From positions 10,883-74,882 of the forward strand of contig DATBCV010000019.1 in the NCBI GenBank assembly GCA_036270275.1: 64,000 bases of DNA, given 5' to 3'. The notes beneath the pieces were generated by a model. That model saw only the letters and a program-made list of their open reading frames with translations, was not told where the DNA came from and ran no database searches. The position numbers and the translations under genes were made by a program. This document shows positions 4,653 through 57,683 of this stretch, in pieces (position 1 is the stretch's first letter; the number at the start of each line of letters is the position of its first letter). The stretch is from Chthoniobacterales bacterium (lineage in GTDB: Bacteria; Verrucomicrobiota; Verrucomicrobiia; Chthoniobacterales; UBA10450).

Positions 4653-5069
4653 GATGGCAGATGATCGCTGGTGAATCGCAAGATTCGCCAGAGGAAAGTC
4701 CGAACACCATACGGCAGCATGCCGCGTAGAATACGCGGGCGGCGTTCGCGCAAGCGGGCGTTGACGGAAAGTGTCACAGAAAAGACACCGCCGGTTCTTT
4801 GAGAGAACAACTGTTCTTTTTTAGCGCAGGTAAGGGTGAAAAGGCGAGGTAAGAGCTCACCGCGCGCGGAGCAATTCGCGCGGCACGAAAAACCCCATGC
4901 GGTGCAAGACAAAACAGAGGCAGGACAGCCGGTCCGATTTAATCCTCGGGTATCGTCGCATCACTTAGACTGTAGCGGCGGTCTCTGACCGTCGATCATG
5001 GTTTAAGGGCGTTCGCCACGGCGAATGAGATAAATGATCATCCACGACAGAATTCGGCTTATCGCCATC
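4653..5069 (+). ncRNA. rnpB: RNase P RNA, bacterial class A
   Basis: The universal P4 strands are present: GAGGAAAGTCCG at 4691-4702 and ACAGAATTCGGCTTAT near 5047-5062. P1 (gatggc/gccatc), P2 (gatgatc/gatcatc) and the P3 hairpin can be drawn. GGTAAGGGTGAAA and GGTAAGAGCTCACC motifs are also present. Confidence 0.9.
4970..4994 (+). repeat. CTGTAG-hairpin repeat copy inside rnpB
   Basis: The 25-mer ctgtagcggcggtctctgaccgtcg is identical to 49418-49442. Confidence 0.85.
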
Positions 5070-5076
5070 TAAATAT

Positions 5077-20564: not shown

Positions 20565-20597
20565 TTGGCAGTAAAATCAGGATGCGGATTCTACATC

Positions 20598-20733
20598 ACG
20601 TCCGGTTCGTGGCCAGCTCTCTTCGCCGGCACCATACGTTTCAGCGAAGATTCGAAGATCGACATCATCCGAAATCTGAAGCTGCGCTTCGGCTGAAAAG
20701 TCATTCCGGGACGTCCGTTTTCGAGTCGGCTAA
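20598..20733 (+). pseudogene. degenerate duplicate of the DUF721 gene 3' end
   Basis: It aligns with 18033-18167. It translates as YITSGSWPALF...SKIDIIRNLKLRFG*, against YVRVLQPALHYELEQVAKIDIIRKLKQRFGGK... in the intact gene. It carries a premature stop and a frameshift. Confidence 0.65.
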
Positions 20734-20799
20734 CTAACGAATAACCACGAAGCTTTTCTGTTGACTCGCCGGAGCGTAGCCTCCTACGATGCGCGCTCC

Positions 20800-21705
20800 A
20801 TGGAAGCCTTTACCTTAACCAAACATTTTCGCCAGTTGCTCCTGACGATGGTTGTCGCCATCGCCGCGGGAATTTTCACATCGGCCTTCGCCGGGCCTGA
20901 GGTGTTGCCTTCAGCCAAAGACAAAAACCCGATCGTCGAAATACCGACCTGCAAAACGACCTGGTATTTCACGATCAGCGGCGGCGCCGATTTCGATCTC
21001 GGCGCGACCGATATCAACAAGTCGAGAACTCAGAGCATAATTCCAGGATTTGTGACGGCGTTCATTAAACAGCACGACTTCAACGATGCATTCGATGACG
21101 TCGGCTACCACGTTCAGGGTGAGCTCGGTTTTGCGGTCGGCAATTACTGGGAATTTTTTGGGCTCTTTAAATGGGAACATGTCGATGCCAGCGGTCGCAC
21201 CTCCGGAAGCCATGTCCTGATTAGCGTCCCGCGCGTAATCATCGCGGACATTCCATTCGGGAGCGAGTTCGGTGACTACAATTCTTATGGATTCGAATTT
21301 GGCGCCCGCTTCTTTTTTCTTTCGCGCCAGGCACGATTTCGCCCATACATCTCGGTCTCTGGCGGACCGACCGAGGCAGATGCCATCGACATCACAACCT
21401 TCACCGACTTTTCCTCGATCGGTGGTCCGAGCAATGTGAAACTCTTTCACGGCCGATATTTGTCGGACACTTTGATCGGCACGGGCGCGGCGATGCTCGG
21501 AGCTGAGTACGCCATCAACTGTCATGTCTCGATCGGCGTGGAAGGCGGCATTCGTTATGAATCGCCGCTAGATGATGATGATCGCACGTTCGAACATCGG
21601 TCGGTTTTAGGAATCGTTCCCCTCGGTTTCTTGCGCTCGGTCAATAACGGCGTGGGAGATCGGTTGGTCGTTCCAGCGAGCGGTTACGTGAAGCTGCGCT
21701 GGTAG
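20800..21705 (+). CDS. outer-membrane beta-barrel protein
   Basis: An ATG at 20800 gives a signal peptide ending in AFA. Beta-strand periodicity and a C-terminal aromatic (KLRW) support the call. Confidence 0.6.
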   Translation: MEAFTLTKHFRQLLLTMVVAIAAGIFTSAFAGPEVLPSAKDKNPIVEIPTCKTTWYFTISGGADFDLGATDINKSRTQSIIPGFVTAFIKQHDFNDAFDDVGYHVQGELGFAVGNYWEFFGLFKWEHVDASGRTSGSHVLISVPRVIIADIPFGSEFGDYNSYGFEFGARFFFLSRQARFRPYISVSGGPTEADAIDITTFTDFSSIGGPSNVKLFHGRYLSDTLIGTGAAMLGAEYAINCHVSIGVEGGIRYESPLDDDDRTFEHRSVLGIVPLGFLRSVNNGVGDRLVVPASGYVKLRW

Positions 21706-21731
21706 ACGCAATAAGACTGTAATTCTAAGCG

Positions 21732-21765
21732 AGCCCGCTCCGACAAGGGCGGGCTTTCTTTTTGT
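21732..21765 (+). terminator. rho-independent terminator
   Basis: A 7-bp stem (agcccgc / gcgggct) is followed by ttctttttgtg. Confidence 0.6.
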
Positions 21766-21823
21766 GTCTGAGCGGCGCGAAGTGTCGTGACGCCGGCCCT
21801 GCGCTCAGTTAAAATAAACGCGA

Positions 21824-23269
21824 ATGCTGCGCCCCCCGCACAAAGCTTCTTCGGCCGCCCATTACTCGCGATTATTCGGCGGACCTTTTCGCGGCCACGA
21901 TGAAATGCATCTGCGCGAATTGTCCGCGCGCATGAAAGACATCCCTGAAAATCGACGCGGGCGGCCGCGCCAGGGAGATCTCGCGCCGTCCGCTTTCGTT
22001 TACCTCGGCCAATTTCTCGATCACGACCTGACCCGCGATTGCACCGGGCTGGAGAACGCATCGCATCCTCCGGAAAACACGGCGAATCTTCATCAGCCAA
22101 GATTAAATCTCGAAAGCGTTTACGGCGGCGGGCCGGAAGAATCGCCGGAACTCTACGACTTATCCGAACGCGGAGCCGAGCGGTTTTTGCTCGGACAGAC
22201 CAAAGCGACGCCGATAGTTTCATCCACTCGTGACGATTTGCCGCAGCGTGACGGCACAACTTTGCTGGCCGATCCGCGCAACGATCAGCATCTCATCATC
22301 TCCCAGCTCCACGTCGCCTTCCTGAAATTTCACAACCGAATTGTCGATCTTGTGAGACGCGGCGAATTGGACCAAGTCGCGCTCCCGAATGAAAAGGTTT
22401 TTCAAATCGCGCGCCGTCTGACCGTCTGGCATTACCAGTGGATTGTTCGCAACGAATTCCTGAGCTGGTTTGTCTTGCCGGAAGTCTTGCAGCACATCGA
22501 GCGGAATGGTGCGCGATTTTTTAAAGCGGAGACCGGCGCACAAGCTCTAACGCTCCCGATCGAATTCACTCAAGCTGTTTTCCGGTTCGGGCATAGCACT
22601 GTCCAACCTCAATACGATGTTAATCGCTGGACCGGACTGGTTCGATTGCGCGAGCTGATTCGTAAAAAACCGCACGAGAAAGAGAGCGAGCCACTCGCGG
22701 CAGACCGGACCGTCGATTGGGACAGATTCACTCGAACTTGGGCGGGCAATGCGAACTTTGCCGAGAACATCGACACCTTGATCTCGGAAGACATGTTCGA
22801 TCTTCCCGCGGCCGCAATGCCGATTCCTTTCAAGACTGCGCCGCCGCCTTTGCCGGAAATGACGCTTTTACGCGGATCGCGAATCGGTTTGCCTTCCGGA
22901 CAAGAAGCGTGTCGCGCGGCTGACGTGCCTTCGCTCAAGCCTTGCCAGATCGGATTCGACGACGAAGGAAACGAGTTTCTCCGGCGACGCGGGCTGCACG
23001 AGAGAACGCCGCTTTGGTATTACATTTTGCGCGAGGCTGAAGTTCTCGGCGTCCGGAAGCTCCGCGGTGGCGAATGTCTCGGCCCGCTCGGTAGCCGAGT
23101 TGTCGCCGAAGTCATACTCGGGATCATGAACGCCGACCCGGAACATTATCTAAATGTCGATCCAAACTGGAAACCGCTTATGGCCAACCTGCCGCGAGTG
23201 TCCGGGCCCCGCCCGATCGGTCGGTTGCGAAACTTCCTGGCCTTTGCGAACGAGCGACAATTTCTTTGA
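21824..23269 (+). CDS. haem peroxidase, peroxidase-cyclooxygenase (animal haem peroxidase) superfamily, cytoplasmic
   Basis: 481 aa. The distal-His motif YLGQFLDHDLT and the proximal-His motif FRFGHS are present. There is no signal peptide. Confidence 0.85.
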   Translation: MLRPPHKASSAAHYSRLFGGPFRGHDEMHLRELSARMKDIPENRRGRPRQGDLAPSAFVYLGQFLDHDLTRDCTGLENASHPPENTANLHQPRLNLESVYGGGPEESPELYDLSERGAERFLLGQTKATPIVSSTRDDLPQRDGTTLLADPRNDQHLIISQLHVAFLKFHNRIVDLVRRGELDQVALPNEKVFQIARRLTVWHYQWIVRNEFLSWFVLPEVLQHIERNGARFFKAETGAQALTLPIEFTQAVFRFGHSTVQPQYDVNRWTGLVRLRELIRKKPHEKESEPLAADRTVDWDRFTRTWAGNANFAENIDTLISEDMFDLPAAAMPIPFKTAPPPLPEMTLLRGSRIGLPSGQEACRAADVPSLKPCQIGFDDEGNEFLRRRGLHERTPLWYYILREAEVLGVRKLRGGECLGPLGSRVVAEVILGIMNADPEHYLNVDPNWKPLMANLPRVSGPRPIGRLRNFLAFANERQFL

Positions 23270-24750
23270 TCGCAAACGCAGAGCGAGTCGCACGCGATTT
23301 GCGCGTTTTAATCGACAAACAGCGTGGGCAAGCGTCGAGAACAATTGAGCAATCGCTTGAGCCGTTGGTGACTTTCGCGCTCAACCGCTTGCAAAGTCTT
23401 GCGCCGGATGCGGCCAACGAAATTGTGGCGCCGTCGGGCTGGCTCACCTTGGCCGAACATTTAACCAGACGGCTCGTGTTCGCACTCGGACCGACTTTGC
23501 GGATCGAGCACATTGCCGCCAAAGCAATATCGCTCAATTCTAAAAGCAAGAGCGCAGGCCCTGGACTCGCACTGAGCGAAGCGGTCCGCGCTTTTCCGGG
23601 CCTGTTCGAAACGGCCGCTCACCTTCTGGGCGCTTGGGTCGACGCGCAGAGTGAAACACTGAAACGCTTGAAGCGTGACCGCGCGCTGTTGGCAGAATGT
23701 TTTGGCTTCGACCGGCGAGCTTCGCGCGCTACGAAGATTCAAGCGGGATTATCCGATCCGCACGACCGCGGAAGGAGCGTTACGCTGATCGAGTTTTCCG
23801 ATCGTGCCCGCATAATCTACAAACCGCGCTCGTGTGATGGAGAAGAACTTTGGTTCGCAGCTCTCCGCTGGCTCAACCAAAACGGAATCGACGCGGGTTT
23901 TTACATTCCGCGGCTGCTCGCGCGTGAAAAGTACTGTTGGATGGAATTTCTCCAGGCTAAGGCCTGCTCAAGCCTCAACGCGGTTCATTCCTTTTATTTT
24001 CGGTGGGGCGTGCAGACCGCGCTCGCCACGGTTTTAGAAGCGTCGGATCTACACAAAGAAAACTGGATTGCGTTAAACTCGCAGCCAATTCTGGTCGACG
24101 CCGAAGCTCTAGGCGCTGCATCGTCGGGTTCGCATGCTCGCAAGAAGAAAAGTTTAGATCGACAATCGCTGCCTTCACTTCTCGAAACCGGCCTACTACC
24201 GTTTACTTCGCGCGATCGCGCCGGGCGCTACTGGGGCATCGCACCTTTTGATGCGACGCTGGCGGAAATCGCCGCCGATAGTTGTTGGCCTCGCTATAAA
24301 GGGGAGTCGCAACCGCCGTGGAGATACTTGAGCCATCTCCTTCGCGGATTCGACGCTGCCGCGAGGCTTTTTGTAAAACCGTCTTCAGCCCGGAACTTTC
24401 TCGACGAAATAATTTCTAGGGCGCGAATCGGAAAGCAGCGCTTGTTTTTTCGCTCGAGCGCGGACTATGCGCGCATGTTGCGCGAATCGCTCGAGCCGTC
24501 GCTGATGATTTTGCCAGAATGCCGCAAGCGCTGGCTGGCGCAAAAATGTTGCGCCTCCGCAGTCAATCGAGCCAGCGGCATCGCCGAGGCGCGCGCGCTT
24601 CTGCGTTGCGACTTGCCAAAATTTGTGATCCCGCGAAAAACTTTCCGGATTTCGCGAAAGCGATTTTCAACGGAAGTCGCCCGGCTCAGGCTCAGTCGGC
24701 AACTATTACGACGCCGCGTTCTGCTGCGAACGCGCAGTCATTACCGTTGA
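23266..24750 (+). CDS. stand-alone LanM-type dehydratase/kinase domain protein (DUF4135), no LanC cyclase domain
   Basis: 494 aa. SDPHDRGRSV, IIYKPRS, SDLHKENWIA and ILVDAEAL match the LanM N-domain catalytic motifs. The putative TTG start overlaps the peroxidase TGA (TTGA). Confidence 0.8.
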   Translation: MIANAERVARDLRVLIDKQRGQASRTIEQSLEPLVTFALNRLQSLAPDAANEIVAPSGWLTLAEHLTRRLVFALGPTLRIEHIAAKAISLNSKSKSAGPGLALSEAVRAFPGLFETAAHLLGAWVDAQSETLKRLKRDRALLAECFGFDRRASRATKIQAGLSDPHDRGRSVTLIEFSDRARIIYKPRSCDGEELWFAALRWLNQNGIDAGFYIPRLLAREKYCWMEFLQAKACSSLNAVHSFYFRWGVQTALATVLEASDLHKENWIALNSQPILVDAEALGAASSGSHARKKKSLDRQSLPSLLETGLLPFTSRDRAGRYWGIAPFDATLAEIAADSCWPRYKGESQPPWRYLSHLLRGFDAAARLFVKPSSARNFLDEIISRARIGKQRLFFRSSADYARMLRESLEPSLMILPECRKRWLAQKCCASAVNRASGIAEARALLRCDLPKFVIPRKTFRISRKRFSTEVARLRLSRQLLRRRVLLRTRSHYR

Positions 24751-40113: not shown

Positions 40114-40863
40114 TCAACGGTCGCGGATCCACTCGCCGCGCACCGGCTCATCACGGCGGCCGCGGTGCGCGCGATAAATTGGCGCGTGCGAACCTGGCAG
40201 CAGTTGCAGCGCCGCGAGAGTCTCGAGATCCAGCCGGCCGGTCGTTGGCAGGCGAACGCGCGCCTGATACGCGCGCAGCGAAAATTCCAGATCAGGCCCG
40301 GCCGCTCCGTTAAATGCTCCGCGATATAATCCCTGGCGCGCCAAAATATTTTGCGCGGACAGAATTACGTCGTGCTGAACTTCCCGGGACGAATTCGCAT
40401 ACGGCGTTCCGGCGAAATGTCCGCCGGGCACGATCGGCGCCGCATCCTCATCGAGCGGCACTGGAGGTTGTCGATCTTGTTGGTCGGGAAATGGTTGACC
40501 GGTCATTGGATTTGTCGGAGTGGAACTTTCACGCTGCTCCTCGCGTAATTCCGGACGCTCCTGCGATTCTGCCGGTTGCGGCGCAGTGGTCGGCGAAGCT
40601 TTTACGACGGCGTGCACGCCGGACGCATCGACGCCGAGAGACTTCAAAGTTTCATCGTTCAAATCGCCGCTGATTTGCAGTCCGTTGCGAATTTGATAGC
40701 GCCGAATCGCCGCGGTTGTGTCGGCATCTTTGGTTCCGGTGACCTCACCGAAATAATAACCCTCATCCTTGAGCGATTGCTGGACGTTGTGGATTAAATC
40801 GTCCGCCCGGACGGAAATTGCGACCGTGGCCAGCAATGCCAGCGCTGCGACTCGAAGTTTCAT
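40114..40863 (-). CDS. secreted protein with two peptidoglycan-binding (PG_binding_1) domains
   Basis: A signal peptide is present, with TTAAIRRYQIRNGLQISGDLNDETL and LRAYQARVRLPTTGRLDLETL. Confidence 0.7.
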   Translation of the reverse strand: MKLRVAALALLATVAISVRADDLIHNVQQSLKDEGYYFGEVTGTKDADTTAAIRRYQIRNGLQISGDLNDETLKSLGVDASGVHAVVKASPTTAPQPAESQERPELREEQRESSTPTNPMTGQPFPDQQDRQPPVPLDEDAAPIVPGGHFAGTPYANSSREVQHDVILSAQNILARQGLYRGAFNGAAGPDLEFSLRAYQARVRLPTTGRLDLETLAALQLLPGSHAPIYRAHRGRRDEPVRGEWIRDR

Positions 40864-40893: not shown

Positions 40894-41691
40894 CTATTCA
40901 GTCCCCGCGCCGGCCACGGCGAGAGGTAATTGTCGATCTTTTAAAACTTCACGGTAACGCAGAATGCCTTCGCTGATCGCCGCCGCCATTTGGTCCCGGT
41001 AATCGTTGCTGTCCAACTTCGCGAGCTCTTCCTTATTTAGGAATCCGCCCTCCACCAGGACCGCCGGTACCGCGACATGCGCGATCACGAAAAATTGCTC
41101 GGCCTTAGTTCCACGATCCGGCGCTTTCGTGCGCGCGATCATCGCTTCCTGAATAAATTTGGCGAGGCTTTGGCTTGCTACCGTCGGTGATTCCGCTGCC
41201 GGGCCCTGGAAAAACGGAATCCACGAGACCAGCCGCGGAGCGGGCGCGCTCTGATGCTCGGCGTAATAAGTTTCAATACCGCTCGCGATTTTCTTGCTCT
41301 CGTTAAAATGAATGCTGACAAAAATGCAATCGCGCGCGCGACTGGTGACGGCGGCGCGGTCCTGAAGTGAAACGTAACTGTCCCCAACACGCGTCATCAA
41401 CGTGGCCAGGCCCTGCGATTGGAGCAGTCGATCCAGGCGCTGCGCAATGTCGAGCGTCAAATCTTTCTCATACACCGGTCCGCACATCGCGCCGGAATCT
41501 TGTCCGCCGTGTCCGGGATCTATCACCACCAAAGTAAAAGGCGCGGGCGCAGCAGTGTGTTGCGTGGAAACTGGCGTCGGCCGCGGCACCGACAAAATTT
41601 GCCACCAAACGAATGAGGCGAGCATGAGCGCGAGTCCAACCCACGCGAGAACGTTTCTGATTGCCCCCCCGAAACCCCGTCGCGAAGACAT
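40894..41691 (-). CDS. N-acetylmuramoyl-L-alanine amidase (Amidase_3)
   Basis: VVIDPGHGGQDSGA and SIHFNE zinc-ligand motifs are present, with an N-terminal TM/signal anchor. Confidence 0.85.
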   Translation of the reverse strand: MSSRRGFGGAIRNVLAWVGLALMLASFVWWQILSVPRPTPVSTQHTAAPAPFTLVVIDPGHGGQDSGAMCGPVYEKDLTLDIAQRLDRLLQSQGLATLMTRVGDSYVSLQDRAAVTSRARDCIFVSIHFNESKKIASGIETYYAEHQSAPAPRLVSWIPFFQGPAAESPTVASQSLAKFIQEAMIARTKAPDRGTKAEQFFVIAHVAVPAVLVEGGFLNKEELAKLDSNDYRDQMAAAISEGILRYREVLKDRQLPLAVAGAGTE

Positions 41692-41693
41692 CG

Positions 41694-42476
41694 TTATGTT
41701 TCCAGGATCGAACGCAGCTCTTCGTCGGACAAAGTGCGATAACGAATCGCGCTCCGGCTATCGCGCTCGAGAACCGCTCCCTCCACGCTGGAATTCGCGA
41801 GCTGCTCGCTCCGATATTTTCGCACCGCCTCACGATCGGGCAGGTCCTTCGTCGCAGTTTCGCCGCCGAGCGCGAGCCGTCCAACGCTCCACGCGTCGGC
41901 AGCGGTGGCAATTGCATCGACCAATGTCGCGTCGGTCGCGTGATTTTGTTGCAAGAACTTGTCCATTAATTCAGCCGACGCCTTTGTCCCACCCAACACG
42001 GCAAATCGTTGTCGCGGTTGGGCGGACGGACCATCAGCTGTGATCGAACCGTCGTAGTCCACCGACAAAAACAAATCTTCTTTTGGGCTCGAACCGATTT
42101 CGGCAAACAAGAGCCGCGCCAGATAAGGCGGCCCGTAAATTTGCTCGAACGCGCTTTTCATCACCGGGCTGAGCGAATAATGCGCCAGGCGTCGCAGTGA
42201 AACGTCCGCGGCCGCTCGCGTAAATCCTTCGGTGCTCGCCAGCTCAATCGCCGCCAGCCGCAAGCGTTCGATGTCGCCCGGATGACCAATCGCTCCCATC
42301 GCGATGCGATCGTAAATCTCAAAAAGCTTTTGCCGCGAACGCCGGCCAATCGTGAGGAACACAATACCGTCGCGATAACCGACTGCCGCAATCGGGCTGC
42401 CCTGCGCGAGCTGCGTCTCGATGTACTCGCGCCGGTTCGCGATCGCTTCCACCCATCGGTATGGTTCTTCGATCAT
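41694..42476 (-). CDS. prcA: proteasome alpha subunit (bacterial 20S)
   Basis: 260 aa with a PrcA-like N-terminal region. It overlaps prcB by 4 nt. Confidence 0.75.
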   Translation of the reverse strand: MIEEPYRWVEAIANRREYIETQLAQGSPIAAVGYRDGIVFLTIGRRSRQKLFEIYDRIAMGAIGHPGDIERLRLAAIELASTEGFTRAAADVSLRRLAHYSLSPVMKSAFEQIYGPPYLARLLFAEIGSSPKEDLFLSVDYDGSITADGPSAQPRQRFAVLGGTKASAELMDKFLQQNHATDATLVDAIATAADAWSVGRLALGGETATKDLPDREAVRKYRSEQLANSSVEGAVLERDSRSAIRYRTLSDEELRSILET

Positions 42477-43288
42477 CCCACTCGCGCGTTAAAAACCTGC
42501 GAAACTTTTTCTTCGCTCAAAGTCGTGATCCCTTCGCGCGAAACGATTTTGATTAAAGGAAAAATTTTGCCGCTGCGATCGACTCCGCCCGTTGCGGTGT
42601 CGGCTTCAGCCGCCGTGTCTAACGCGCGCAACGCCACCGCGACCGCTTCGTCCTGGTCCAAATCGTGGAGCTTTTTCGGGCCCCACTGATTTTCGTAATA
42701 AAGAATCCCGCGCACGGCCGGCGAGCCCGAACCCGTCGCCGCGAAATCCGCCACTTCAAACTGCGCGCCCATCGCATCGTAAAAATACAAACGCGCTTCC
42801 GGTTTGGAGTTGTCGTCGTAGGTAGCGAAGATCGGTACGACGATGCCGACGCCTTGCATGACGAATCCGAAATTGTCTCGCAATAATTTCGAAAGCGCGC
42901 GCACTTTGCCGTCCACACTCATTTCCTGCAATTGCGTGCGGCGGAAATATTGAAACGAATGTTCCAGGACGCGCGCCATTTCCCAAGCCGTCGCCGGCAC
43001 GCCCGCGATCGCCATGATCGAGTGTCGATCTATCTCGAGCACTTTGTCCGCGCGATCATAAACCACGGTGTTGCCCGCGGTCGCGCGACGATCGCCCGCA
43101 ACGAGCACGCCGCCGGAAAATTTGAAGGCGAGGATGGTGGTCGATTCCGTCGGCAAGAATGTTTGGTTCGTTGCGCCTGCGACATTTTCGGGCGCGATTT
43201 GCAGCAGCCCTTTTCTGCGCAACACCGCCGGAAAATCTTCGCTCGCTCCCGAAAAATTCGGATCGAGCACCAGTGGCGGCTTGTCCAT
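42473..43288 (-). CDS. prcB: proteasome beta subunit (with propeptide)
   Basis: The start is placed at MDKPP. The mature N-terminus is TTILAFKFSGGVLVAGDRRAT, with the catalytic Thr. Confidence 0.85.
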   Translation of the reverse strand: MDKPPLVLDPNFSGASEDFPAVLRRKGLLQIAPENVAGATNQTFLPTESTTILAFKFSGGVLVAGDRRATAGNTVVYDRADKVLEIDRHSIMAIAGVPATAWEMARVLEHSFQYFRRTQLQEMSVDGKVRALSKLLRDNFGFVMQGVGIVVPIFATYDDNSKPEARLYFYDAMGAQFEVADFAATGSGSPAVRGILYYENQWGPKKLHDLDQDEAVAVALRALDTAAEADTATGGVDRSGKIFPLIKIVSREGITTLSEEKVSQVFNARVG

Positions 43289-43464
43289 TATTGACCGGTG
43301 CGCTGGCGGTAGCGCTTCGATTGGTTGGGGTCGACCTTCCGCATTTTCTTTAGCAAATCCTTTGTGTCCGGACGGGAGATATCGGGGGAACGCGGACCAC
43401 CTTCGTCCCCCTGCTTCGGACCCCACGGAGCGGGATCAATCGGCTTCTGCACGCGCTCCGGCAT
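43288..43464 (-). CDS. UBact, Pup-like prokaryotic ubiquitin-like modifier
   Basis: This 58-aa ORF is below the track cutoff: MPERVQKPIDPAPWGPKQGDEGGPRSPDISRPDTKDLLKKMRKVDPNQSKRYRQRTGQ. The C-terminal YRQRTGQ matches the UBact signature. A TAATG overlap links it to prcB. Confidence 0.75.
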   Translation of the reverse strand: MPERVQKPIDPAPWGPKQGDEGGPRSPDISRPDTKDLLKKMRKVDPNQSKRYRQRTGQ

Positions 43465-43564
43465 ATCAAAAATTTAAGGCGAAAAAGTAGGAAGGCAAGC
43501 TGACCGCAATTGTCCGCCGCCCTCGCTTGCCAGGCAAAGCCCCTAATGCCAAACTCGAGGTCCC

Positions 43565-44068
43565 ATGAAATTGCTGGCTGGAGGAATCTTATGCGCGCTA
43601 GCTGTCGCCGCTTTCACAATTTCGACCGCTTCCGCCCAGACCTTCGCCTCGACACCCAATCCCGCCGCGAGCGAGACGGCGCAACTTCAGGAGCTCACGA
43701 AAAAAATCGAAGAACAAAATGCGAAGATCGACATGTTGTCGCAGCAGATTTTGAAACTTCAACAGCAACTCGGCGAGCATAAGCCGGGCGTCATGATTGG
43801 CGAAGCGACGTCGCCATCGCCTGCTGGATCGACGATCGCAAAATCGACATCCACTCCGGTTTCCTCGACTTCGGCCTCGCCGGACGACGGAAATACGCAT
43901 GTTGTCGCGCGCGGTGAAACGCTCACCTCGATCGCTCATCAGCACAACGTCAGTGTGAGTGATCTTCAGAAATTCAATCACATCGAAAACCCGTTGAAGT
44001 TGCAGGCCGGACAGACTCTCCAGATTCCGCCGTCGCCGGTTCCATCGCCTTCTTCATCGGGCGAGTAA
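43565..44068 (+). CDS. secreted LysM-domain protein
   Basis: A signal peptide and a coiled coil are followed by the LysM domain HVVARGETLTSIAHQHNVSVSDLQKFN...LQAGQTLQIP. Confidence 0.75.
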   Translation: MKLLAGGILCALAVAAFTISTASAQTFASTPNPAASETAQLQELTKKIEEQNAKIDMLSQQILKLQQQLGEHKPGVMIGEATSPSPAGSTIAKSTSTPVSSTSASPDDGNTHVVARGETLTSIAHQHNVSVSDLQKFNHIENPLKLQAGQTLQIPPSPVPSPSSSGE

Positions 44069-49446: not shown

Positions 49447-51804
49447 TCAATGCACAACCACGTTGCACGAACTCGCGCGGCCATGATCATCAAGTGCCGT
49501 CAATTCGTAATCGCCGGCGTGCGTGTCCCAGCCCAGAAACTCATTCGGTTCCGCCTGGCCGATGAACTTTTTCCCGGCGAACCAATAAACTTTCCGGACG
49601 TCGCCATCCACTTTCGCCCGCAGCGGAATGGATTTCGCCGATGCGAGAAGAATTTCTTTCCCCGCCGGCGAAACGATCCGCGGACTGCGACCGGTGCGAC
49701 CGATGAGCTCGCTTGCCATTTCCGGCAAAAACGGCGGCGGCGTTTTGCGGGGCACGCCCGCCTGCTCGAACAGTTTCAAAATGTCCCCAGGCCAAAATTC
49801 GTAAACCTCGCGGCGCAATTCGCGCGTGCCGTCATCGATCGGCACTCGCAAGCCGCTCGCGCGGTCGACCAATACTTCGCGGTGCACATCGCAAGTTTTG
49901 ATCGGCGACATTCCGGGAATGAACCAGCCTTCGACGCGTTGCGTGCAATGCTCGTTCGGTAAATCGCCAGACAGCGCGCAGAATTCGACCCGCTTTAAAT
50001 TCGCGCCCGGTGGCGGAAGATGCGGCGTGTTCGGTTCGGGCCAGCTCGCGCGCAAATTGTCGACGATTTGAAACAACAGCGGCGCGGCCGCGGTGCGTCC
50101 GACAAAGGCAGGGTTTGCGCGTCCATCGAAATTCCCGACCCAGACTCCCAGCACGTAATGATCAAAGACCGCAATCGACCATGCGTCGCGAAATCCGTGC
50201 GACGTTCCCGTTTTCCAAAAAACCGGCGCGCTGCGATTACCGTCCGCGCAATTCATTTCCGGCCGCGGAACATTGCCGAGCATTTCCAAAGTGAGAAACG
50301 CCGCTTCCGGCGAAAGAATCTTCTTCGGTTGCGGAATCGATTCGCTCTTTGTGAACCGCAGCGGGCGCAGATCGCCGTTGTTCGCGAGCGCGGCGTAAAG
50401 TTTCACGAGGTCCTGCATCGAAACTTCCGCGCCACCGAGCGGAAGCGCGAGTCCGTAAAAAGATTCGGCTTTTGGCAATCGAACGCCTGACGTTTTGAGA
50501 AATTGATAAAGCGTCGGATGCGCGAGACGCGACGTCAGCTCGACCGCCGGAACGTTGCGGCTCCGCGTGAGCGCGTCGCAAGCGCGAATCGGCCCGAGAA
50601 ATTCGCGATCGAAATTTTCCGGATTGTATTCGCCGAAACTGCGCGGCGCATCGGCGAGGATCGACAATGGATGAATCAACCCCTGCTCGAGCGCGAGCGC
50701 GTACACGAAAGGCTTTAATGTTGAACCCGGCGATCGCAGCATTCGCGTTCCATCGACCTGGCCGTTGATGTCGATCTTGTCGAAATCGGCCGAGCCAACT
50801 TGCGCGAGCACCTCCATCGTGCGCGTGTCGACGAGCATCGCGGCGGCGTTTTCAATTCCGCGGTTGCGACTCCAGGCAACGTAGTCGGTAATTCTTCGCT
50901 CGATCGACCGCTGCTTCTCCAAGTCGAGCGTTGTTACGATTTCCTCGCGACCGTGTGACGTTTCCAGCAGCTGTTGCACGAAATGCGGCGCGAGAAGTTT
51001 GCCGTCGCGCTGTATCCGCGCACGAAATTCGCGCCCGGAAAAATCGCGCGCCTCAGAGATGCGGCTGCGATCGTACCAATTCGATTGCGCTTGATTGACC
51101 GAACGGTTATCGCGCTCCGCGAAGAGCGCGCGACGGCTTGGGCTTTGCGGAATCACGCCGAGCGCGACCGATTCGGGCCCGGTCAACTGCGCAGCCGGTT
51201 TATCAAAATAAATCAAACTCGCCGCGCCGATCCCTTCGATGTTCCGGCCGTAGGGCGCGAGATTCAGATACGCTTCGAGGATTTCATCTTTCGAATAGTG
51301 CCGCTCCAATTCGAGCGCGCGCAGAATTTGTTGGAGCTTTCCGGGAATCGTTCGCGTGTGCAGATGAAATCGCAGCCGCGCGAGCTGCATCGTGATCGTC
51401 GATCCACCCGCGGTTGCGCGTTGAAACCGAACGACATCAATCGCGCAACGCACGAGCGCGATCGGATTTACGCCCGGATGCTTCGAGTAGTATTTGTCTT
51501 CGTAGCGCAGGGTCGCGTCGATCAGGTCCGGCGAGATTTTCTGAAGCGGCGTCCACATTCTGAACTTCTGATCGCTGCTAAGCGCAACGCGCAGTAATTT
51601 TCCGTTTCGATCGCGCACGATTTGCGAAAACGAGATTCCGTCGACCAGGGGCGGCTTTGGAAGAAAATACCACACGAACCACGCCGTCATCCCGAGCAGA
51701 GCGAGGGATCTCACCCACGGAGCGCGGACCACACAATATAATTTGTGCGCTCCATCACCCTTTGAGCGATCCCTCACTTCGTTCGGGATGACACGCGTTT
51801 TCAT
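49447..51804 (-). CDS. pbpC: penicillin-binding protein 1C (class A PBP)
   Basis: GT51 motifs RYEDKYYSKHPGVNP and GGSTITMQLAR are present, with transpeptidase motifs STLK and KTGTS. The gene lies next to alpha-2-macroglobulin. The true start is probably downstream of 51804, because the first 35-40 codons run through a palindromic repeat. Confidence 0.9.
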   Translation of the reverse strand: MKTRVIPNEVRDRSKGDGAHKLYCVVRAPWVRSLALLGMTAWFVWYFLPKPPLVDGISFSQIVRDRNGKLLRVALSSDQKFRMWTPLQKISPDLIDATLRYEDKYYSKHPGVNPIALVRCAIDVVRFQRATAGGSTITMQLARLRFHLHTRTIPGKLQQILRALELERHYSKDEILEAYLNLAPYGRNIEGIGAASLIYFDKPAAQLTGPESVALGVIPQSPSRRALFAERDNRSVNQAQSNWYDRSRISEARDFSGREFRARIQRDGKLLAPHFVQQLLETSHGREEIVTTLDLEKQRSIERRITDYVAWSRNRGIENAAAMLVDTRTMEVLAQVGSADFDKIDINGQVDGTRMLRSPGSTLKPFVYALALEQGLIHPLSILADAPRSFGEYNPENFDREFLGPIRACDALTRSRNVPAVELTSRLAHPTLYQFLKTSGVRLPKAESFYGLALPLGGAEVSMQDLVKLYAALANNGDLRPLRFTKSESIPQPKKILSPEAAFLTLEMLGNVPRPEMNCADGNRSAPVFWKTGTSHGFRDAWSIAVFDHYVLGVWVGNFDGRANPAFVGRTAAAPLLFQIVDNLRASWPEPNTPHLPPPGANLKRVEFCALSGDLPNEHCTQRVEGWFIPGMSPIKTCDVHREVLVDRASGLRVPIDDGTRELRREVYEFWPGDILKLFEQAGVPRKTPPPFLPEMASELIGRTGRSPRIVSPAGKEILLASAKSIPLRAKVDGDVRKVYWFAGKKFIGQAEPNEFLGWDTHAGDYELTALDDHGRASSCNVVVH
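51686..51792. repeat. 107-nt palindromic intergenic element with 25-nt terminal inverted repeats
   Basis: The arm gtcatcccgagcagagcgagggatc (51686-51710) faces gatccctcacttcgttcgggatgac (51768-51792). An inner palindrome is ggagcgc...gcgctcc. Confidence 0.75.
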
Positions 51805-51821
51805 TTTGCGCTACGAGGCCG

Positions 51822-54800
51822 TCATTCCGTCACGGTGATTTTACCGCCAATGCCGCGGCCTTTGAGGTTGCGATCGTACATCGATTGCGCGAACACGGGC
51901 GGGACGATGAAGTTTCCGCGGTTGTCCGACTTGATTTGGTAATCGATTTCGAGCGCATTGGTCGGCGCGGTCACAAAGAACACTGCGCGATCTTCGCGGA
52001 CGTCCACATAATCGACGCCCGGCGTGGACCCGGTCCCGGTGTGGATCGACGAATCCACCACTTCGAATCCGCCCGGCAAAAGATCGACAATCGCCACGTT
52101 CGTGATCGGCTCGCGATTCAAGCTGCGCACATGAATGCGGACGTGCAGTTGTTCGCCGAGTTTCGTGCGCGACGCAGCTTCACTATTCTTGCCGAGAACT
52201 TCGCGATAAACTTCCAGGCCGTTCTTGAGCGCTTCGTTCGGAACATTTCGGTCGAATCCTGCTTCAACGATTTGGAAGAACGCGCCCGGTCCGGTCAATC
52301 GTTGCGCGGAGTTAAAACGAACGCCTCTCGCTTTGTCCGTCAGATCGGCGCGCAACAGCGCTTTCGTTCCATTCACCAAACGGGTTTCAATTTTATCTTT
52401 GTGGAGCTCGCTGATCGAAAGCTCGAGCGGATGTTGGGCGATCGCGTGGGAGTAAGCTTTCAGAGCGCGCACGGCATACGCGGACGAGAGCGTGTTAAAT
52501 TCGCCGTCGCCGATCGGTCTCAGAATGTTTTGGAATTGCTCGGGTGAAATCTTGCGCAGCCGCGCGGGGAATTCGCGCGCGGTCACAGCGATGTATTGCG
52601 AATTCGTTCCGAGCGGCTGGCAAAAATCCCAGCGCTCAATCATTTTGTTATCGGCGATTTTGTAATTGTCGATCAAGCGCTCGGCGTCAGCGTCCTTGTG
52701 GAGCAGGTGCAGCGCGCCGGCGAGATAAACGGCGGTGATATCGCGCAGCCATTCCTCTTTGCGGTTTTTCTCGAGCCAATCGCGAAGATTCAAAATATAA
52801 TTGGTCGTGATGACGCCTTCGCGCGTCAGTGTGTAGATCGAATAGGCGAGCGTGCGTGTGTCGTTCAAGTCTTGCGGTGTGCGCGCCACAATCTTTTGTA
52901 AATTGCGCAGACCGTTCGCGAACATCTCCTGCGGCGGCACGAACCCGCTCGCTTTCGATTCGCTCAAGAAATCCATCACGTAAGCCGAAACGAAGCTGAT
53001 GTGCTCGCCATTTTCCGGCGCCCAATATCCGAACGCGCCCTGATCGTTTTGGCGACGCGCCAAAATTCCGAAGGTGTGTTCGAGTTGCTTGTTAATCTCG
53101 GCGCGGCTCAAACCAAAATCGGCTTCGTCGGCGAGCATCAACCGGCAAAATGCGCCGCTTGTGATTTGTTCGCTGCAACCGTAAGGAAAATCTTTCAAGT
53201 AAGCATCAAGCCCGCGCGCGAGGCCGAGCGGCACAGCCGAAACGCTCGCCTCGAGCTTGCGAAACTCCGGATGCATCTCCCGCGTGAGCTTGATGTCGAT
53301 CTTGTCCTTGAAACTTCCGCTGTGGATTTCAGTCATGTAGGGCGCGGGCGGCCGGACACTCAATGTCGCGCGACGTTTTGTTTCGTGGCCGTTCGCTTTC
53401 GCAAAAAACGAAATTTCGCCGGAACCGAGTTTTTCGTTCGCGCGGAATTTGAAGATCGCGGTCTGCTCGCGCCCTTCCGCGATGCGCAATGTCTGCGTGG
53501 AGCCGCTAACGATCGATAATCGATCATTCGGTTGCGCGCGGAGCTCGACTTCCGCGTTTTGTCCGGAACCTTCGACGTTATTCGCGATGGTTACGCCGGT
53601 TTCAAACTCATCGCCCGGCGCGGCGAGCACCGGCACGCTTGGCGTGATGACGAACGGTCCGCGAATTAACGATTCGCGTTCGTTCGAGCCGACGGTGTCG
53701 TTCGCAATCGCGACCGCCATGATTTTCAATGTGCCGTCGAAATAATCCGGCACGTCATAGACGATTTCGCGCGCGGTTGTGTCGGAATCGAGAATGCCCG
53801 ACCAAAACACGACCGGCTTTTCGGTGACGCGCTTGAAGGGATTCAGCTTTTGGATGTCGCCGCCGCCGCCGTAAGCCGAGACCGAGCGCAGAAGCGAGAA
53901 CTCGGGAATGATAAGATCGACAATCTGCGAAGTCTCGACGCGCAGCGTGCATTTGCGGAAATAAAACGCGAGCGGGTCTGGCGTTTTGTAATTCGTGACT
54001 TGAAGAATTCCCTGATCGACAGCGAAGATGACAATCTTGCTGGGCCGGTCGGATTTGTAACTGATGCGCAACGGTTCGCCCGGCTTTGCGGTTGCGAGCG
54101 CTTTCACGTCCAGGACGAGCCGGCGTTTTTCTTTGTTCGCGGTGAAAGGAACGACGCCATAGCTGAGCGGGCTGACGAAAATTTCCTTGGAATCGAGCGC
54201 GCGCACGAACGCGACATTGACGTAACCGCTGCCCTCGAAATTTTCCGGGACGCGGATGTGTTGAACGCTGCTCGCGCTGTTCGCTTGAAACCATTGCTGC
54301 GCATAAACGTGGTCGCGCTCGATTGTGATCAAGCCGCTGCCGGCATATGGCGCGGTGATGCTGACCGCAATTTCGTCGCCGCTGTTGTATTGCTCGCGAT
54401 CGAGCTTGACCTGCAGCTCCGAATTTTTCTCAAGCGATTTCGAGACTGCGCCGTGGCCGACAACGGAGAATTGGACTTTGGCCAAACGGCGATCTTGATC
54501 GTCGCGCAATTCGAAAATATAATTGCCGGGTTCATTTGTCGGCAGGTCGTACTTGGAACCATTCGCCGCGACCGAAATCTTTTCCGATTTGGTCGTGCGC
54601 TCTTTAAGGACCGACTCGTAAGCGAACTTGCCGCTTTCCTGTTTCGTCAAAACCGAAACGTATTCTTGCGCGATGACGTTTGCGGTCACGTTGCCGAGCG
54701 CGATCCGATTCAATTGCGGATCGACCGCGACAAGATCGACAACGCGCGTTTTGTTCGTGTCAATGTAACGCAAATCGCCGTCGGCTTTGCAGCCGATGAC

Positions 54801-57683
54801 GTAAGGCAAAGCCGAAATGAGGACCGTGGTCGTGCTCGTCACGCTCCGGCCGCCTTCGGCTTCAAATCCTTCCGCGATGAATCGCATCGAGTAAGTCGCA
54901 TCCGCAAAGCGCTCGAGTTGCAGATCAAACTGCGTCTGCCCCGCGCTATCGGTTTTGTTTTCGCCGAGCTCGATCGTTTGTTCGGTGCGTTCTTTCTTTG
55001 GATCGTGGAGCGGATCGAAAAAAGTGTAATCGCGGAACTCAGGAAAGGAGAAGGCCGTCGGCATCAGCTCGATTTTGGAAACGATGCGGCGCTCGGTTGC
55101 CGGTGTGCCATAGAGATTCGCGAGCGAAACAGTCGCGCGCATTTCCTTCGGCTGAATCCAACCCTTCGGCGAAGTTTGCGACAGACGAGTGTCGATCTTC
55201 ATCCGGTCGGGCAAAAATTCTTTGATGTTCGCAGTTGTGCCACCGAGAAGCGTCGAGCGTTTGCTGTTCTTAACTAGATAAACGTTGAAGGTATAGAGAC
55301 CGGTCGCCGATTCGTTCGCGGTTTGGTAAACGAAGTCGACAAAAGCGGAATCGGGTAAATTGATCTTGCGCGTTTGCACGCTGTGACCGCGCGCGTCGAT
55401 CACTTCGGTCTCGAGCGGCAAGCCTTTGAGGTTCCCCTGCCAGTTTCGTTGCTTAACGGCGAGCGCGATGTGAACTTCGTCGCCCGGCCGATAAACACCG
55501 CGCTCGGTGAAGACGAACGCGTCGAGATTTTCCGGGAGCACGCTGTCGACGCCATCAATGTCGAACCTGGAAAAGTTCAGTTGTCGATCTTCGCGCGCGT
55601 AAGGAATGAATGAAACGTCGTCACCGTTGCGCGCGACAAACGCGACCGGCAATTTTTCGCGCAGCGATTTGTCGACGGACGTGAATGCGCAGCGACCATT
55701 GCCGTCGCTCGTCGCGGTTTGCAGCGGGATGCCGTTCTTGCCGAGAAGATCGACAACCACGTTCGCGAGCGGCTTGCCTTCTTTGATCGACATCAGAAAA
55801 ACGTCGTGACTGCCGTCCGCGTTTTTCTTTGTCAGAATTCCAATGTCGGTGACGAGAATGAAACGCGAATCACGAACGTCGATTAACTTCTTCTTTTCCG
55901 GGTCCCAACCCTGCGCGCTCAGGAAAAACAGACCGCGCTCGCTGCCGCCATCGGCCGGTTTGCGAAGATGCTCGCTGAAATCGAACGCGGAATAATTGGC
56001 TTTCCATTTATTCTCCAGCGCGATGTTCTGCCGCTCGGTCGCGATGCGCGAAATATTTTCCTTGTTGAAGTACCCGGCATTCGCAAAGAGCGGCGATTCG
56101 AATTTGCCCTCAGTCTGGCTAACCAGATGATTGATCTGCGTGGTCGCGACGCGGCTGATTTCAAAGTCGATCGTGCTGAGAGCGCGCGAACGGATCGACA
56201 GCTTCTTTTCGCCATTCAATGCCAGCACTCCGCCCTCGCCTTCAATCTGGACTTCACGCGGCAATGACGGCACTGCCACGACGGCGTCGTAGTCATCGCT
56301 CAGCGGATAATCGCCCGCGGCGCGAACACCTTTTTTCACGCGCACGTAAAGCTCGCCGTCGGTCTCGACCCGAACGCGAAACGCGTGTTGTCGATCTTGC
56401 GCTTTTTCCGAGGGCAATGCTTGAAACTTGATTGATTTCGCCTCGTCGAGAATTTCATCCGGAACTGCGTCCGCGCTTTTCCAAAGCTCGACTTCTTTCA
56501 ACTGCGAGCCAATTTCTTCGCCAGATTCACTCTCGTCCGGCGTCGTTGTCGGAGTCGGTGACGCTTCGTCGGTTTCATCGGAGTTATCGACCTCTGCTTC
56601 TTTCTCTTCATCCGAGGCTTTGCGCTTCGGGAGCAACTTCAGCTCAAGCGCTTTGGCGAGATCGCGCGTGCTGATGTCGCTCGTGGTGTTAAGCACGATC
56701 AACTGCTCCGGCTCGCCGTTTTTATTTCGCGCGATCGTCGTTTCGATCGAATCGATCTTGAACATCGAAGCGACGGACGGGATTTGAACCTTTTGCTCGA
56801 GATCGGTCTTGTATTGCGCGCCGCCCTGAGCGGTGCGGACGCCTTTGTTCAAAATCAATTTCGCGAAGTCGTCCCGCTCCGGCAGCACAACCGGCGAGCT
56901 CTGGAGATAAGCCACTCGTTGATGCAAACCGAAAGTGATTTTGAAATGCGGCGCGGGATCGCTCGCGGCAAAGAGATTTGCCCCGCTAACGGTCGCGAAG
57001 CGCAGATGTCGATCCAACTCGCCCGCGTCGACCGCGTGCGTCAGCTCGATGGTCGCAGTGAGCGCTCGCTGAGTTGAATTCGCTGGGTCCTGATAAAGCT
57101 CGAGCTTTTTGATCGCGATCCCGAACGGCGGCGTCTGCGTTTCGTAAACGAAACGCTCTATTCGCACCTGGGTCGGGAAAAATTTCTTGTCGAAAATGAC
57201 TCGGAACTTCGTGTCGGCCGGCCAATCTTCGGTCGGTTCGAAAACAAGGATGTCATCCTTGATCCAGTGCCAGGCGCCGTTGAGATGCGGCCGCAGTTCG
57301 ACTCCCTGAACGCTCGGCTTTTTCAAATCTTCGAGAGGCGCCGCTGATTCGCTAAAGGAAATAATCATGCGCGGAAACTTGAGGTCCTTTTCCAACTTCG
57401 TGACTTCAATCGGCGAGATCTTCGCGGTCACTCGGTGCGGTTTCGGCAGATGCGAATACCAATTCCAGGTCCAGGCGCTCGCGCACAGAATGGCGAGGAT
57501 ACCGGGCGCGATGACTCTTGGATACGCGCGCTCGAGTCTCTTCCAACGTTCGCCGACTTGGCTAAGCCATTGTGGCGGTCGCCATGAAATGTTTCCGAAA
57601 ATCTGCGCTGCGATTCGACGGAAAAAATGGCCGGCGGCCGTGAGCGATTCGAGCGCTTTTAAAAGAGGCGCGGGAGTTTTCAT
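51822..57683 (-). CDS. bacterial alpha-2-macroglobulin (YfhM-like), thioester-containing
   Basis: 1953 aa with an N-terminal membrane anchor, the thioester motif FPYGCSEQ and the canonical pairing with pbpC. Confidence 0.9.
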   Translation of the reverse strand: MKTPAPLLKALESLTAAGHFFRRIAAQIFGNISWRPPQWLSQVGERWKRLERAYPRVIAPGILAILCASAWTWNWYSHLPKPHRVTAKISPIEVTKLEKDLKFPRMIISFSESAAPLEDLKKPSVQGVELRPHLNGAWHWIKDDILVFEPTEDWPADTKFRVIFDKKFFPTQVRIERFVYETQTPPFGIAIKKLELYQDPANSTQRALTATIELTHAVDAGELDRHLRFATVSGANLFAASDPAPHFKITFGLHQRVAYLQSSPVVLPERDDFAKLILNKGVRTAQGGAQYKTDLEQKVQIPSVASMFKIDSIETTIARNKNGEPEQLIVLNTTSDISTRDLAKALELKLLPKRKASDEEKEAEVDNSDETDEASPTPTTTPDESESGEEIGSQLKEVELWKSADAVPDEILDEAKSIKFQALPSEKAQDRQHAFRVRVETDGELYVRVKKGVRAAGDYPLSDDYDAVVAVPSLPREVQIEGEGGVLALNGEKKLSIRSRALSTIDFEISRVATTQINHLVSQTEGKFESPLFANAGYFNKENISRIATERQNIALENKWKANYSAFDFSEHLRKPADGGSERGLFFLSAQGWDPEKKKLIDVRDSRFILVTDIGILTKKNADGSHDVFLMSIKEGKPLANVVVDLLGKNGIPLQTATSDGNGRCAFTSVDKSLREKLPVAFVARNGDDVSFIPYAREDRQLNFSRFDIDGVDSVLPENLDAFVFTERGVYRPGDEVHIALAVKQRNWQGNLKGLPLETEVIDARGHSVQTRKINLPDSAFVDFVYQTANESATGLYTFNVYLVKNSKRSTLLGGTTANIKEFLPDRMKIDTRLSQTSPKGWIQPKEMRATVSLANLYGTPATERRIVSKIELMPTAFSFPEFRDYTFFDPLHDPKKERTEQTIELGENKTDSAGQTQFDLQLERFADATYSMRFIAEGFEAEGGRSVTSTTTVLISALPYVIGCKADGDLRYIDTNKTRVVDLVAVDPQLNRIALGNVTANVIAQEYVSVLTKQESGKFAYESVLKERTTKSEKISVAANGSKYDLPTNEPGNYIFELRDDQDRRLAKVQFSVVGHGAVSKSLEKNSELQVKLDREQYNSGDEIAVSITAPYAGSGLITIERDHVYAQQWFQANSASSVQHIRVPENFEGSGYVNVAFVRALDSKEIFVSPLSYGVVPFTANKEKRRLVLDVKALATAKPGEPLRISYKSDRPSKIVIFAVDQGILQVTNYKTPDPLAFYFRKCTLRVETSQIVDLIIPEFSLLRSVSAYGGGGDIQKLNPFKRVTEKPVVFWSGILDSDTTAREIVYDVPDYFDGTLKIMAVAIANDTVGSNERESLIRGPFVITPSVPVLAAPGDEFETGVTIANNVEGSGQNAEVELRAQPNDRLSIVSGSTQTLRIAEGREQTAIFKFRANEKLGSGEISFFAKANGHETKRRATLSVRPPAPYMTEIHSGSFKDKIDIKLTREMHPEFRKLEASVSAVPLGLARGLDAYLKDFPYGCSEQITSGAFCRLMLADEADFGLSRAEINKQLEHTFGILARRQNDQGAFGYWAPENGEHISFVSAYVMDFLSESKASGFVPPQEMFANGLRNLQKIVARTPQDLNDTRTLAYSIYTLTREGVITTNYILNLRDWLEKNRKEEWLRDITAVYLAGALHLLHKDADAERLIDNYKIADNKMIERWDFCQPLGTNSQYIAVTAREFPARLRKISPEQFQNILRPIGDGEFNTLSSAYAVRALKAYSHAIAQHPLELSISELHKDKIETRLVNGTKALLRADLTDKARGVRFNSAQRLTGPGAFFQIVEAGFDRNVPNEALKNGLEVYREVLGKNSEAASRTKLGEQLHVRIHVRSLNREPITNVAIVDLLPGGFEVVDSSIHTGTGSTPGVDYVDVREDRAVFFVTAPTNALEIDYQIKSDNRGNFIVPPVFAQSMYDRNLKGRGIGGKITVTE

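Follow-up and report, generated by a model that had tools for sequence, protein, structure and literature searches.

A UBact-proteasome operon of Udaeobacter-like Chthoniobacterales, probably split from the locus that encodes Mpa and Dop

The stretch of DNA analysed here, a 64-kb window from a Udaeobacter-like member of the Chthoniobacterales (Verrucomicrobiota) whose own genome was covered within these 64 kb, carries an operon in which the gene for UBact, a Pup-like protein modifier, precedes the genes prcB and prcA of a 20S proteasome. The locus raises the question of where the other parts of such a system, the Mpa-like ATPase, the Dop-type deamidase and the PafA-type ligase, are encoded. 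Our analysis points with good confidence to a split UBact-proteasome system, with the tag and the core protease in the operon described here and Mpa and Dop at a distant second locus; the enzymes missing nearby would then reflect a dispersed system, not an orphan one. The UBact family, its presence in Verrucomicrobia and the annotation of this very protein are already known, and to our knowledge UBact systems are known from bioinformatics only. The novelty is organisational, in that the system appears to be divided between at least two loci in an abundant clade of soil bacteria. The operon consists of the following features:

43288..43464, minus strand: UBact gene, 58 aa plus TAA stop (NF033388, PF20513); C-terminal end DLLKKMRKVDPNQSKRYRQRTGQ
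43286..43290, minus strand: TAATG stop/start overlap of UBact and prcB, read from the sequence
42473..43288, minus strand: prcB, 20S proteasome beta subunit, 271 aa (PF00227 107.5 bits; TIGR03690 171.5 bits)
41694..42476, minus strand: prcA, 20S proteasome alpha subunit, 260 aa (PF00227 25.9 bits; TIGR03691 86.8 bits)

The minus-strand open reading frame (ORF) at 43464-43288 encodes MPERVQKPIDPAPWGPKQGDEGGPRSPDISRPDTKDLLKKMRKVDPNQSKRYRQRTGQ, matching the peptide quoted in a first-pass annotation of this DNA. Its scores of 82.9 bits against NF033388 (cut-off 35) and 81.1 bits against PF20513 (cut-off 27.8) are more than double both cut-offs, and the identical protein in NCBI (HEX4638180.1, HZR78783.1) is named "ubiquitin-like protein UBact [Chthoniobacterales bacterium]", in agreement with the identity that had been proposed. 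The first-pass annotation had also described the ORF as unlisted, which is correct with respect to its own 60-aa threshold but not with respect to public data: the 58-aa gene has already been called by gene callers on JGI, ENA and NCBI contigs, tagged PF20513, and the 90% cluster of the protein holds 960 members. A PDB search with the peptide gave no match, Pup included, even at E ≤ 10.

Related UBact loci were collected by scanning one genome per species. This yielded at least 300 loci, of which the best 80 species representatives were used for context; their labels are nearly all Chthoniobacterales, Candidatus Udaeobacter or unclassified Verrucomicrobia metagenome-assembled genomes (MAGs), with another phylum in two cases. 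Conservation of UBact was calculated from 92 related sequences, and that of PrcB motifs from 88 relatives. The modifier is 58 residues long in all 92 and its last 29 residues are nearly invariant. The terminal Gln, read from the sequence in the window as it had been before, is present in 87 of them and replaced by Glu in five, an alternation shared with Pup. Synonymous divergence (pS) reaches 0.59, near saturation, and the ratio of replacement to synonymous divergence (pN/pS) is 0.062 for the whole protein and 0.018 for its C-terminal half. Across the 80 species UBact remains 88-100% identical, with neighbouring genes going down to 40-60%, and the small ORF is found 5' of prcB in every one of these representatives, a conservation on which the earlier call had been made to depend. 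The 58-aa ORF is a genuine UBact gene under purifying selection.

The stop codon of UBact and the ATG of prcB have one base in common (TAATG at 43290-43286), and the overlap recurs in 88 of the 92 related loci, as TAATG in 84 and as TGATG in four; it constitutes a translational coupling of UBact to prcB. Further downstream, the prcA start overlaps the prcB stop by 4 nucleotides (nt; ATGA), and all relatives with a locus that extends far enough have prcA 3' of prcB. The coupling of UBact to a prcB-prcA pair is thus seen at both junctions, as first described. Thr50 of PrcB, in the motif TTILAF, aligns with the mature Thr1 of Rhodococcus and M. tuberculosis PrcB, the best PDB matches, which gives a propeptide of 49 residues and substantiates both the propeptide and the catalytic Thr that had been noted earlier. 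Counting residues from Thr50 also locates Asp17 and Lys33, and the region TTILAF...GDRRAT...DRADKV is kept in the 88 relatives. The residue that precedes Thr1 (residues 49 and 50 together span window positions 43138-43143) is Ser or Ala throughout the clade (88 loci); in the Rhodococcus PDB match the corresponding residue, at the autoprocessing site, is Gly. As both subunits pass the PF00227 cut-off (22.4 bits for PrcA) yet miss the NCBIfam equivalog cut-offs (191.9 bits for TIGR03690 and 139 bits for TIGR03691), we regard them as divergent members of their families.

The enzymes were searched for in the window by comparing 20 of its largest ORFs with Pfam, and two that lacked a Pfam match also with NCBIfam; among these ORFs there was no gene of the Pup-ligase family and none for an Mpa or proteasomal AAA ATPase. 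Twelve tblastn probes, comprising M. tuberculosis PafA, Dop and Mpa, Nitrospira PafA, lineage-specific Dop and Mpa, and UBact-type PafAs, gave zero matches at E ≤ 0.01 in the window and 91 related loci (1.36 Mb altogether). The M. tuberculosis PafA, Dop and Mpa probes were validated by NCBIfam scores of 803, 806 and 880 bits, respectively. In none of the 91 related loci is there a homologue of PafA, Dop or Mpa closer than 10 kb to UBact. The lack of these enzymes near UBact, noted for ligase and ATPase over the 64 kb in the first-pass annotation, is real, and it is conserved clade-wide. The UBact gene adjoins neither a Dop/PafA nor an Mpa gene here, which concerns gene organisation and not protein family.

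Candidates for the second half of the system came from a scan of metagenome contigs for the motif NTRDEPH written in the A/T-ending Asp and Glu codons preferred by the window genome, after which 120 loci were ranked by the correlation (r) of their tetranucleotide composition to that of the window. For orientation, the median r is 0.95 for the 80 UBact loci versus 0.62 for a random PafA/Dop sample. Loci of Udaeobacter-like composition (L135, with an r of 0.955, L205, L208, L148 and L131) carry Mpa and Dop only and lack UBact, PrcB and PrcA. For the L135 Dop, the 120 best-matching homologues are soil sequences with 86% identity or more, and one of them bears the name "PafA2 family protein [Candidatus Udaeobacter sp.]". 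In two MAGs, both halves were found in the same genome on separate contigs that agree in composition (r 0.95-0.96):

GCA_036495045.1: Mpa-Dop on DASXNN010000113.1; UBact-prcBA on DASXNN010000003.1 (L041)
GCA_046727935.1: Mpa-Dop on JBKPDP010000121.1; UBact-prcBA on JBKPDP010000118.1 (L046)

Homologues of Mpa and Dop, for which a search of the rest of the genome had been proposed, thus exist in relatives at a separate locus, and it is in these two relatives that they share a genome with the UBact operon. Among contigs that bear the Udaeobacter-type UBact operon or Dop (L064, L072 and P0502), the labels Alphaproteobacteria, Candidatus Dormiibacterota and Candidatus Binatus also occur, probably through mis-binning in public MAGs.

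At the second locus, Mpa (561 aa) and Dop (506-525 aa) lie beside guaA and aat, which point in opposite directions (<-guaA, ->aat). The putative deamidase scores 473.8 bits against the Dop model TIGR03688, just under the cut-off of 492.3 bits, versus 373.8 bits against the PafA model. It also bears the Dop-loop insertion and, around the catalytic Asp, the motif DHAHPEY, given as Dop-specific by Hecht et al. (PMC7947786), from whom the positions that discriminate Dop from PafA were taken. Because of the higher Dop-model score, the Dop-loop and DHAHPEY, we assign the enzyme by its sequence to the Dop type. Its neighbour, the ATPase, scores 460 bits with TIGR03689. The Mpa-like ATPases of UBact systems (L135:2936-4615 on the minus strand, L205, L217, L218, L151, L132, L201, L103 and L127) end in ...GVI, ...ATI, ...RVI or ...QII. 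The Mpa of a Nitrospira locus (L096) ends in ...GHYL, near the GQYL tail of the M. tuberculosis Mpa probe, which we take to be a 20S-docking motif, and the tails devoid of GQYL suggest a different mode of docking to the 20S core. In most Udaeobacter-type loci of sufficient length, aat (TIGR00667, 216.9 bits; L218:10310-10876, L220:13738-14304) lies approximately 2 kb from Mpa-Dop. This gene encodes the Leu/Phe-tRNA-protein transferase, the bacterial N-end-rule enzyme, so that two degradation-tagging systems would be neighbours.

Other routes to the second locus led elsewhere. A homologue search with Nitrospira PafA (PMC7947786 supplement) returned Nitrospirota only, and an exhaustive search of representatives yielded 6,584 family clusters, of which the 10 examined (Moduliflexus, Tectomicrobia, Gemmatimonadota and Entotheonellia among them) included none named verrucomicrobial. 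An orphan soil Pup-ligase (P0244) was considered as the complementary locus and rejected, since its GC content of 63% and its r of 0.73 to the window place it outside this lineage. The soil metagenome contigs L092-L095 carry an orphan 484-aa Pup_ligase gene of a 63% GC organism; its neighbours encode a Ku protein, an ECF sigma factor and an O6-methylguanine methyltransferase, with no proteasome, Mpa or modifier gene nearby.

In the split system that we favour, the UBact-prcB-prcA operon would be the "tag plus core protease" half, and the "enzyme" half, an Mpa-like AAA unfoldase and a Dop-type deamidase/depupylase, would lie elsewhere in the chromosome, near guaA and aat as in relatives. If the pathway follows that of Pup, the model for every biochemical step, Dop would convert the C-terminal Gln of UBact to Glu, and a PafA-type ligase, which is expected, would couple the gamma-carboxylate to substrate lysines. 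The tag would then be recognised by Mpa and the substrates threaded into the PrcA/PrcB 20S core, with Dop also serving in tag removal. Both a distant Mpa-Dop locus in the window's own genome and a PafA gene are predictions of this scheme, and several observations weigh against it. A PafA-type ligase did not turn up within 10 kb of UBact-prcBA or of Mpa-Dop (1.36 Mb and 0.23 Mb searched), the Dop and Mpa scores are marginally under the NCBIfam equivalog cut-offs, and the Mpa-like C-terminus reads ...GVI, not a GQYL-type docking motif. In addition, the link to Mpa-Dop comes from relatives whose PrcB is 79-80% identical and from MAG binning, the window genome having been searched within its 64 kb, and the literature searched yielded no experimental study of UBact conjugation.

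The genes that surround the operon encode mainly proteins of the cell envelope:

40894..41691, minus strand: N-acetylmuramoyl-L-alanine amidase (Amidase_3; PF01520 159.6 bits), same position in 75 loci
40114..40863, minus strand: peptidoglycan-binding protein (PG_binding_1; PF01471 84.5 bits), 30 nt past the amidase gene, in 71 loci
43465..43564, no strand assigned: divergent intergenic stretch of 100 bp that separates UBact from the LysM gene, read from the sequence
43565..44068, plus strand: LysM-domain protein, divergent (PF01476 52.6 bits), conserved in 86 loci

The LysM and murein amidase genes had already been recognised as the neighbours of the operon, and their profile matches agree. 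The amidase gene begins 2 nt past the prcA stop in the window, and is probably co-transcribed with the proteasome operon; it is a context gene and no known part of a UBact system. The order conserved across the 80 species is ABC transporter - GYF - LysM <> UBact - PrcB - PrcA - Amidase_3 - PG_binding <- DUF - OmpH - BamA. The divergent intergenic region is presumed to hold the promoter of the operon; a consensus scan of its 100 bp revealed no sigma-70-like site, and a promoter/terminator scan of the operon region gave nothing exceeding shuffled controls.

Could PafA have been lost in the Udaeobacter lineage while UBact, the 20S core, Mpa and Dop were retained, with ligation carried out by a Dop-type or unrelated enzyme, or with UBact acting non-covalently? 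PafA directly follows prcA in canonical UBact loci, and an amidase gene occupies that place here; the 10-kb surroundings of UBact in 80 species and of Mpa-Dop in 17 loci contain no second Pup-ligase paralogue; and Dop has been converted to a ligase by 20 substitutions (PMC7947786), so that the two activities are mutationally close. However, the enzyme of the lineage has the Dop-specific DHAHPEY and Dop-loop without ligase features, and a deamidase and a Gln terminus kept under strong selection make best sense if ligation follows. The NTRDEPH pattern, moreover, is blind to the expected enzyme, since the PafA paralogue of canonical UBact loci has NTRDEPL instead, and our metagenome scan was thus unable to detect a UBact-type PafA; a viral-contig scan with UBact-type PafA came out empty, as expected. 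Brewer et al. report the complete set of proteasome components. Given the retained deamidase, the strong selection on the Gln/Glu terminus and the statement of Brewer et al., a PafA elsewhere in the genome is the likelier case, and we consider the loss of the ligase unlikely. Slightly less probable still is a Udaeobacter pathway devoid of a PafA-type ligase, with Dop-type, unrelated or non-covalent action, whose operon is co-regulated with the peptidoglycan-hydrolase genes.

The neighbourhood itself invites another explanation, in which UBact-prcBA is tied to envelope remodelling and, through co-expression with the murein amidase and the peptidoglycan-binding protein, serves envelope or division control and not general proteolysis. 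It draws on the close spacing of prcA and the amidase gene (1-38 nt in most relatives), on the LysM/amidase/PG-binding/OmpH/BamA surroundings kept in 65-86 loci, and on the canonical Nitrospira locus L096, where an M23 peptidase gene directly follows PafA and an Omp85/BamA-type gene lies 8 kb beyond. Yet the N-terminus of the amidase, MSSRRGFGGAIRNVLAWVGLALMLASFVWW, has a hydrophobic stretch, judged by eye to be a signal or membrane anchor, by which the enzyme would lie outside the cytoplasm and apart from the proteasome, and a gene order kept within one clade may be plain inheritance; we hold this explanation to be very improbable. Finally, the 317-aa ORF that starts at GTG 43426 in the prcB frame would allow prcB to begin there, with the UBact-like frame being accidental and the small ORF no gene. 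This start was rejected and the idea is refuted, with next to no probability left to it: the UBact frame is rich in synonymous change and nearly free of replacement change, the profile scores lie far above their cut-offs, the ATG within TAATG is conserved, and independent callers give genes of 58 aa and 271 aa. The conservation pattern of UBact (length, pS, pN/pS and stop/start overlap) excludes both a chance ORF and the 317-aa start.

With the split system as the preferred reading, the arrangement has consequences beyond this window. The Udaeobacter clade ranks among the most abundant bacteria in soil, and its loci would illustrate that a tag-plus-core-protease operon can persist under very strong selection though separated from its ATPase and deamidase. 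Searches based on gene neighbourhood will under-call dispersed systems of this kind. In this clade, nature also provides a test of whether the PafA ligase is dispensable; if PafA merely lies elsewhere in the genome, the case is one of ordinary rearrangement of a known pathway.

Away from the operon, the window holds a bacterial class A RNase P RNA at 4653-5073 on the plus strand (RF00010, 208.6 bits). At 49447-57683 on the minus strand, the gene for a 1953-aa alpha-2-macroglobulin-domain protein adjoins that for a penicillin-binding protein (transglycosylase, transpeptidase and BiPBP_C), which its domains suggest to be of the PBP1C type. At 19131-24750, the gene for a vitamin-K-dependent gamma-carboxylase-like protein of 477 aa (HTTM and VKGC lumenal domain) lies near an animal-haem-peroxidase-like gene, which a DUF4135 gene overlaps (21824-24750).

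UBact conjugation-proteasome clusters of Gram-negative phyla were reportedly described by Lehmann et al. in 2017. The canonical order, Mpa-Dop-UBact-PrcB-PrcA-PafA, is complete in the metagenomic loci L151, L132 and L112, and intact from Dop to PafA in L216, L104, L121 and L215, which are truncated on the Mpa side; the "described loci" of the first-pass annotation, with Mpa and Dop/PafA flanking UBact-prcBA, are thus seen in metagenomic clusters. A Nitrospiraceae MAG (JAXLZC010000001.1, the L096 locus) carries Mpa-Dop-PrcB-PrcA-PafA, in which Dop and PrcB are just 40 nt apart. Neither tblastn nor a G[QE]* ORF scan of the locus detected a UBact- or Pup-like ORF, and for this reason we based the canonical comparison on L151, L132, L112 and the other metagenomic loci. 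Canonical clusters are 47-68% identical to the window in UBact and 45-51% in PrcB, and in L151 and L132 Mpa and Dop are 50-57% identical to those of the window's lineage. They share with the window the modifier family, the ...RYRQRTG[QE] end (RYRQRTGQ in the window) and the position of UBact directly 5' of prcB-prcA. Unlike in these clusters, Mpa-Dop is separate in the window's clade, PafA is not beside prcA, and UBact-prcBA lies amid cell-envelope genes. As the more distant loci retain the canonical cluster, the split arrangement is probably derived.

The likeness extends to the Pup-proteasome system of M. tuberculosis (mpa, dop, pup, prcB, prcA and pafA), where the order pup-prcB-prcA is the same and the terminal Gln likewise requires deamidation by Dop. 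With respect to the actinobacterial system, Mpa and Dop of the lineage are 38% and 42% identical, and PrcB finds its best PDB matches there. Unlike in that system, UBact has no detectable sequence match to Pup in the PDB, the Mpa of the lineage lacks a C-terminal GQYL, Ser or Ala takes the place of the Gly before Thr1 of Rhodococcus PrcB, and the enzymes are outside the same 64-kb region. Chthoniobacterales are listed by Hecht et al. (PMC7947786) among the orders that have Dop/PafA homologues. Iyer et al. 2008 (PMC2588565) reported non-actinobacterial Pup orthologues, verrucomicrobia among them, and described the Pup gene as "invariably" adjacent to a PafA homologue; the window's clade is an exception to this rule, and contradicts the early generalisation. 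The same study provides a parallel in Plesiocystis and Rhodopirellula, where the modifier/ligase module is likewise unlinked from the proteasome module. There, Pup stays with a membrane-anchored ligase and the proteasome genes are unlinked, whereas in the window's clade the modifier has remained beside the proteasome genes and the enzymes would lie elsewhere.

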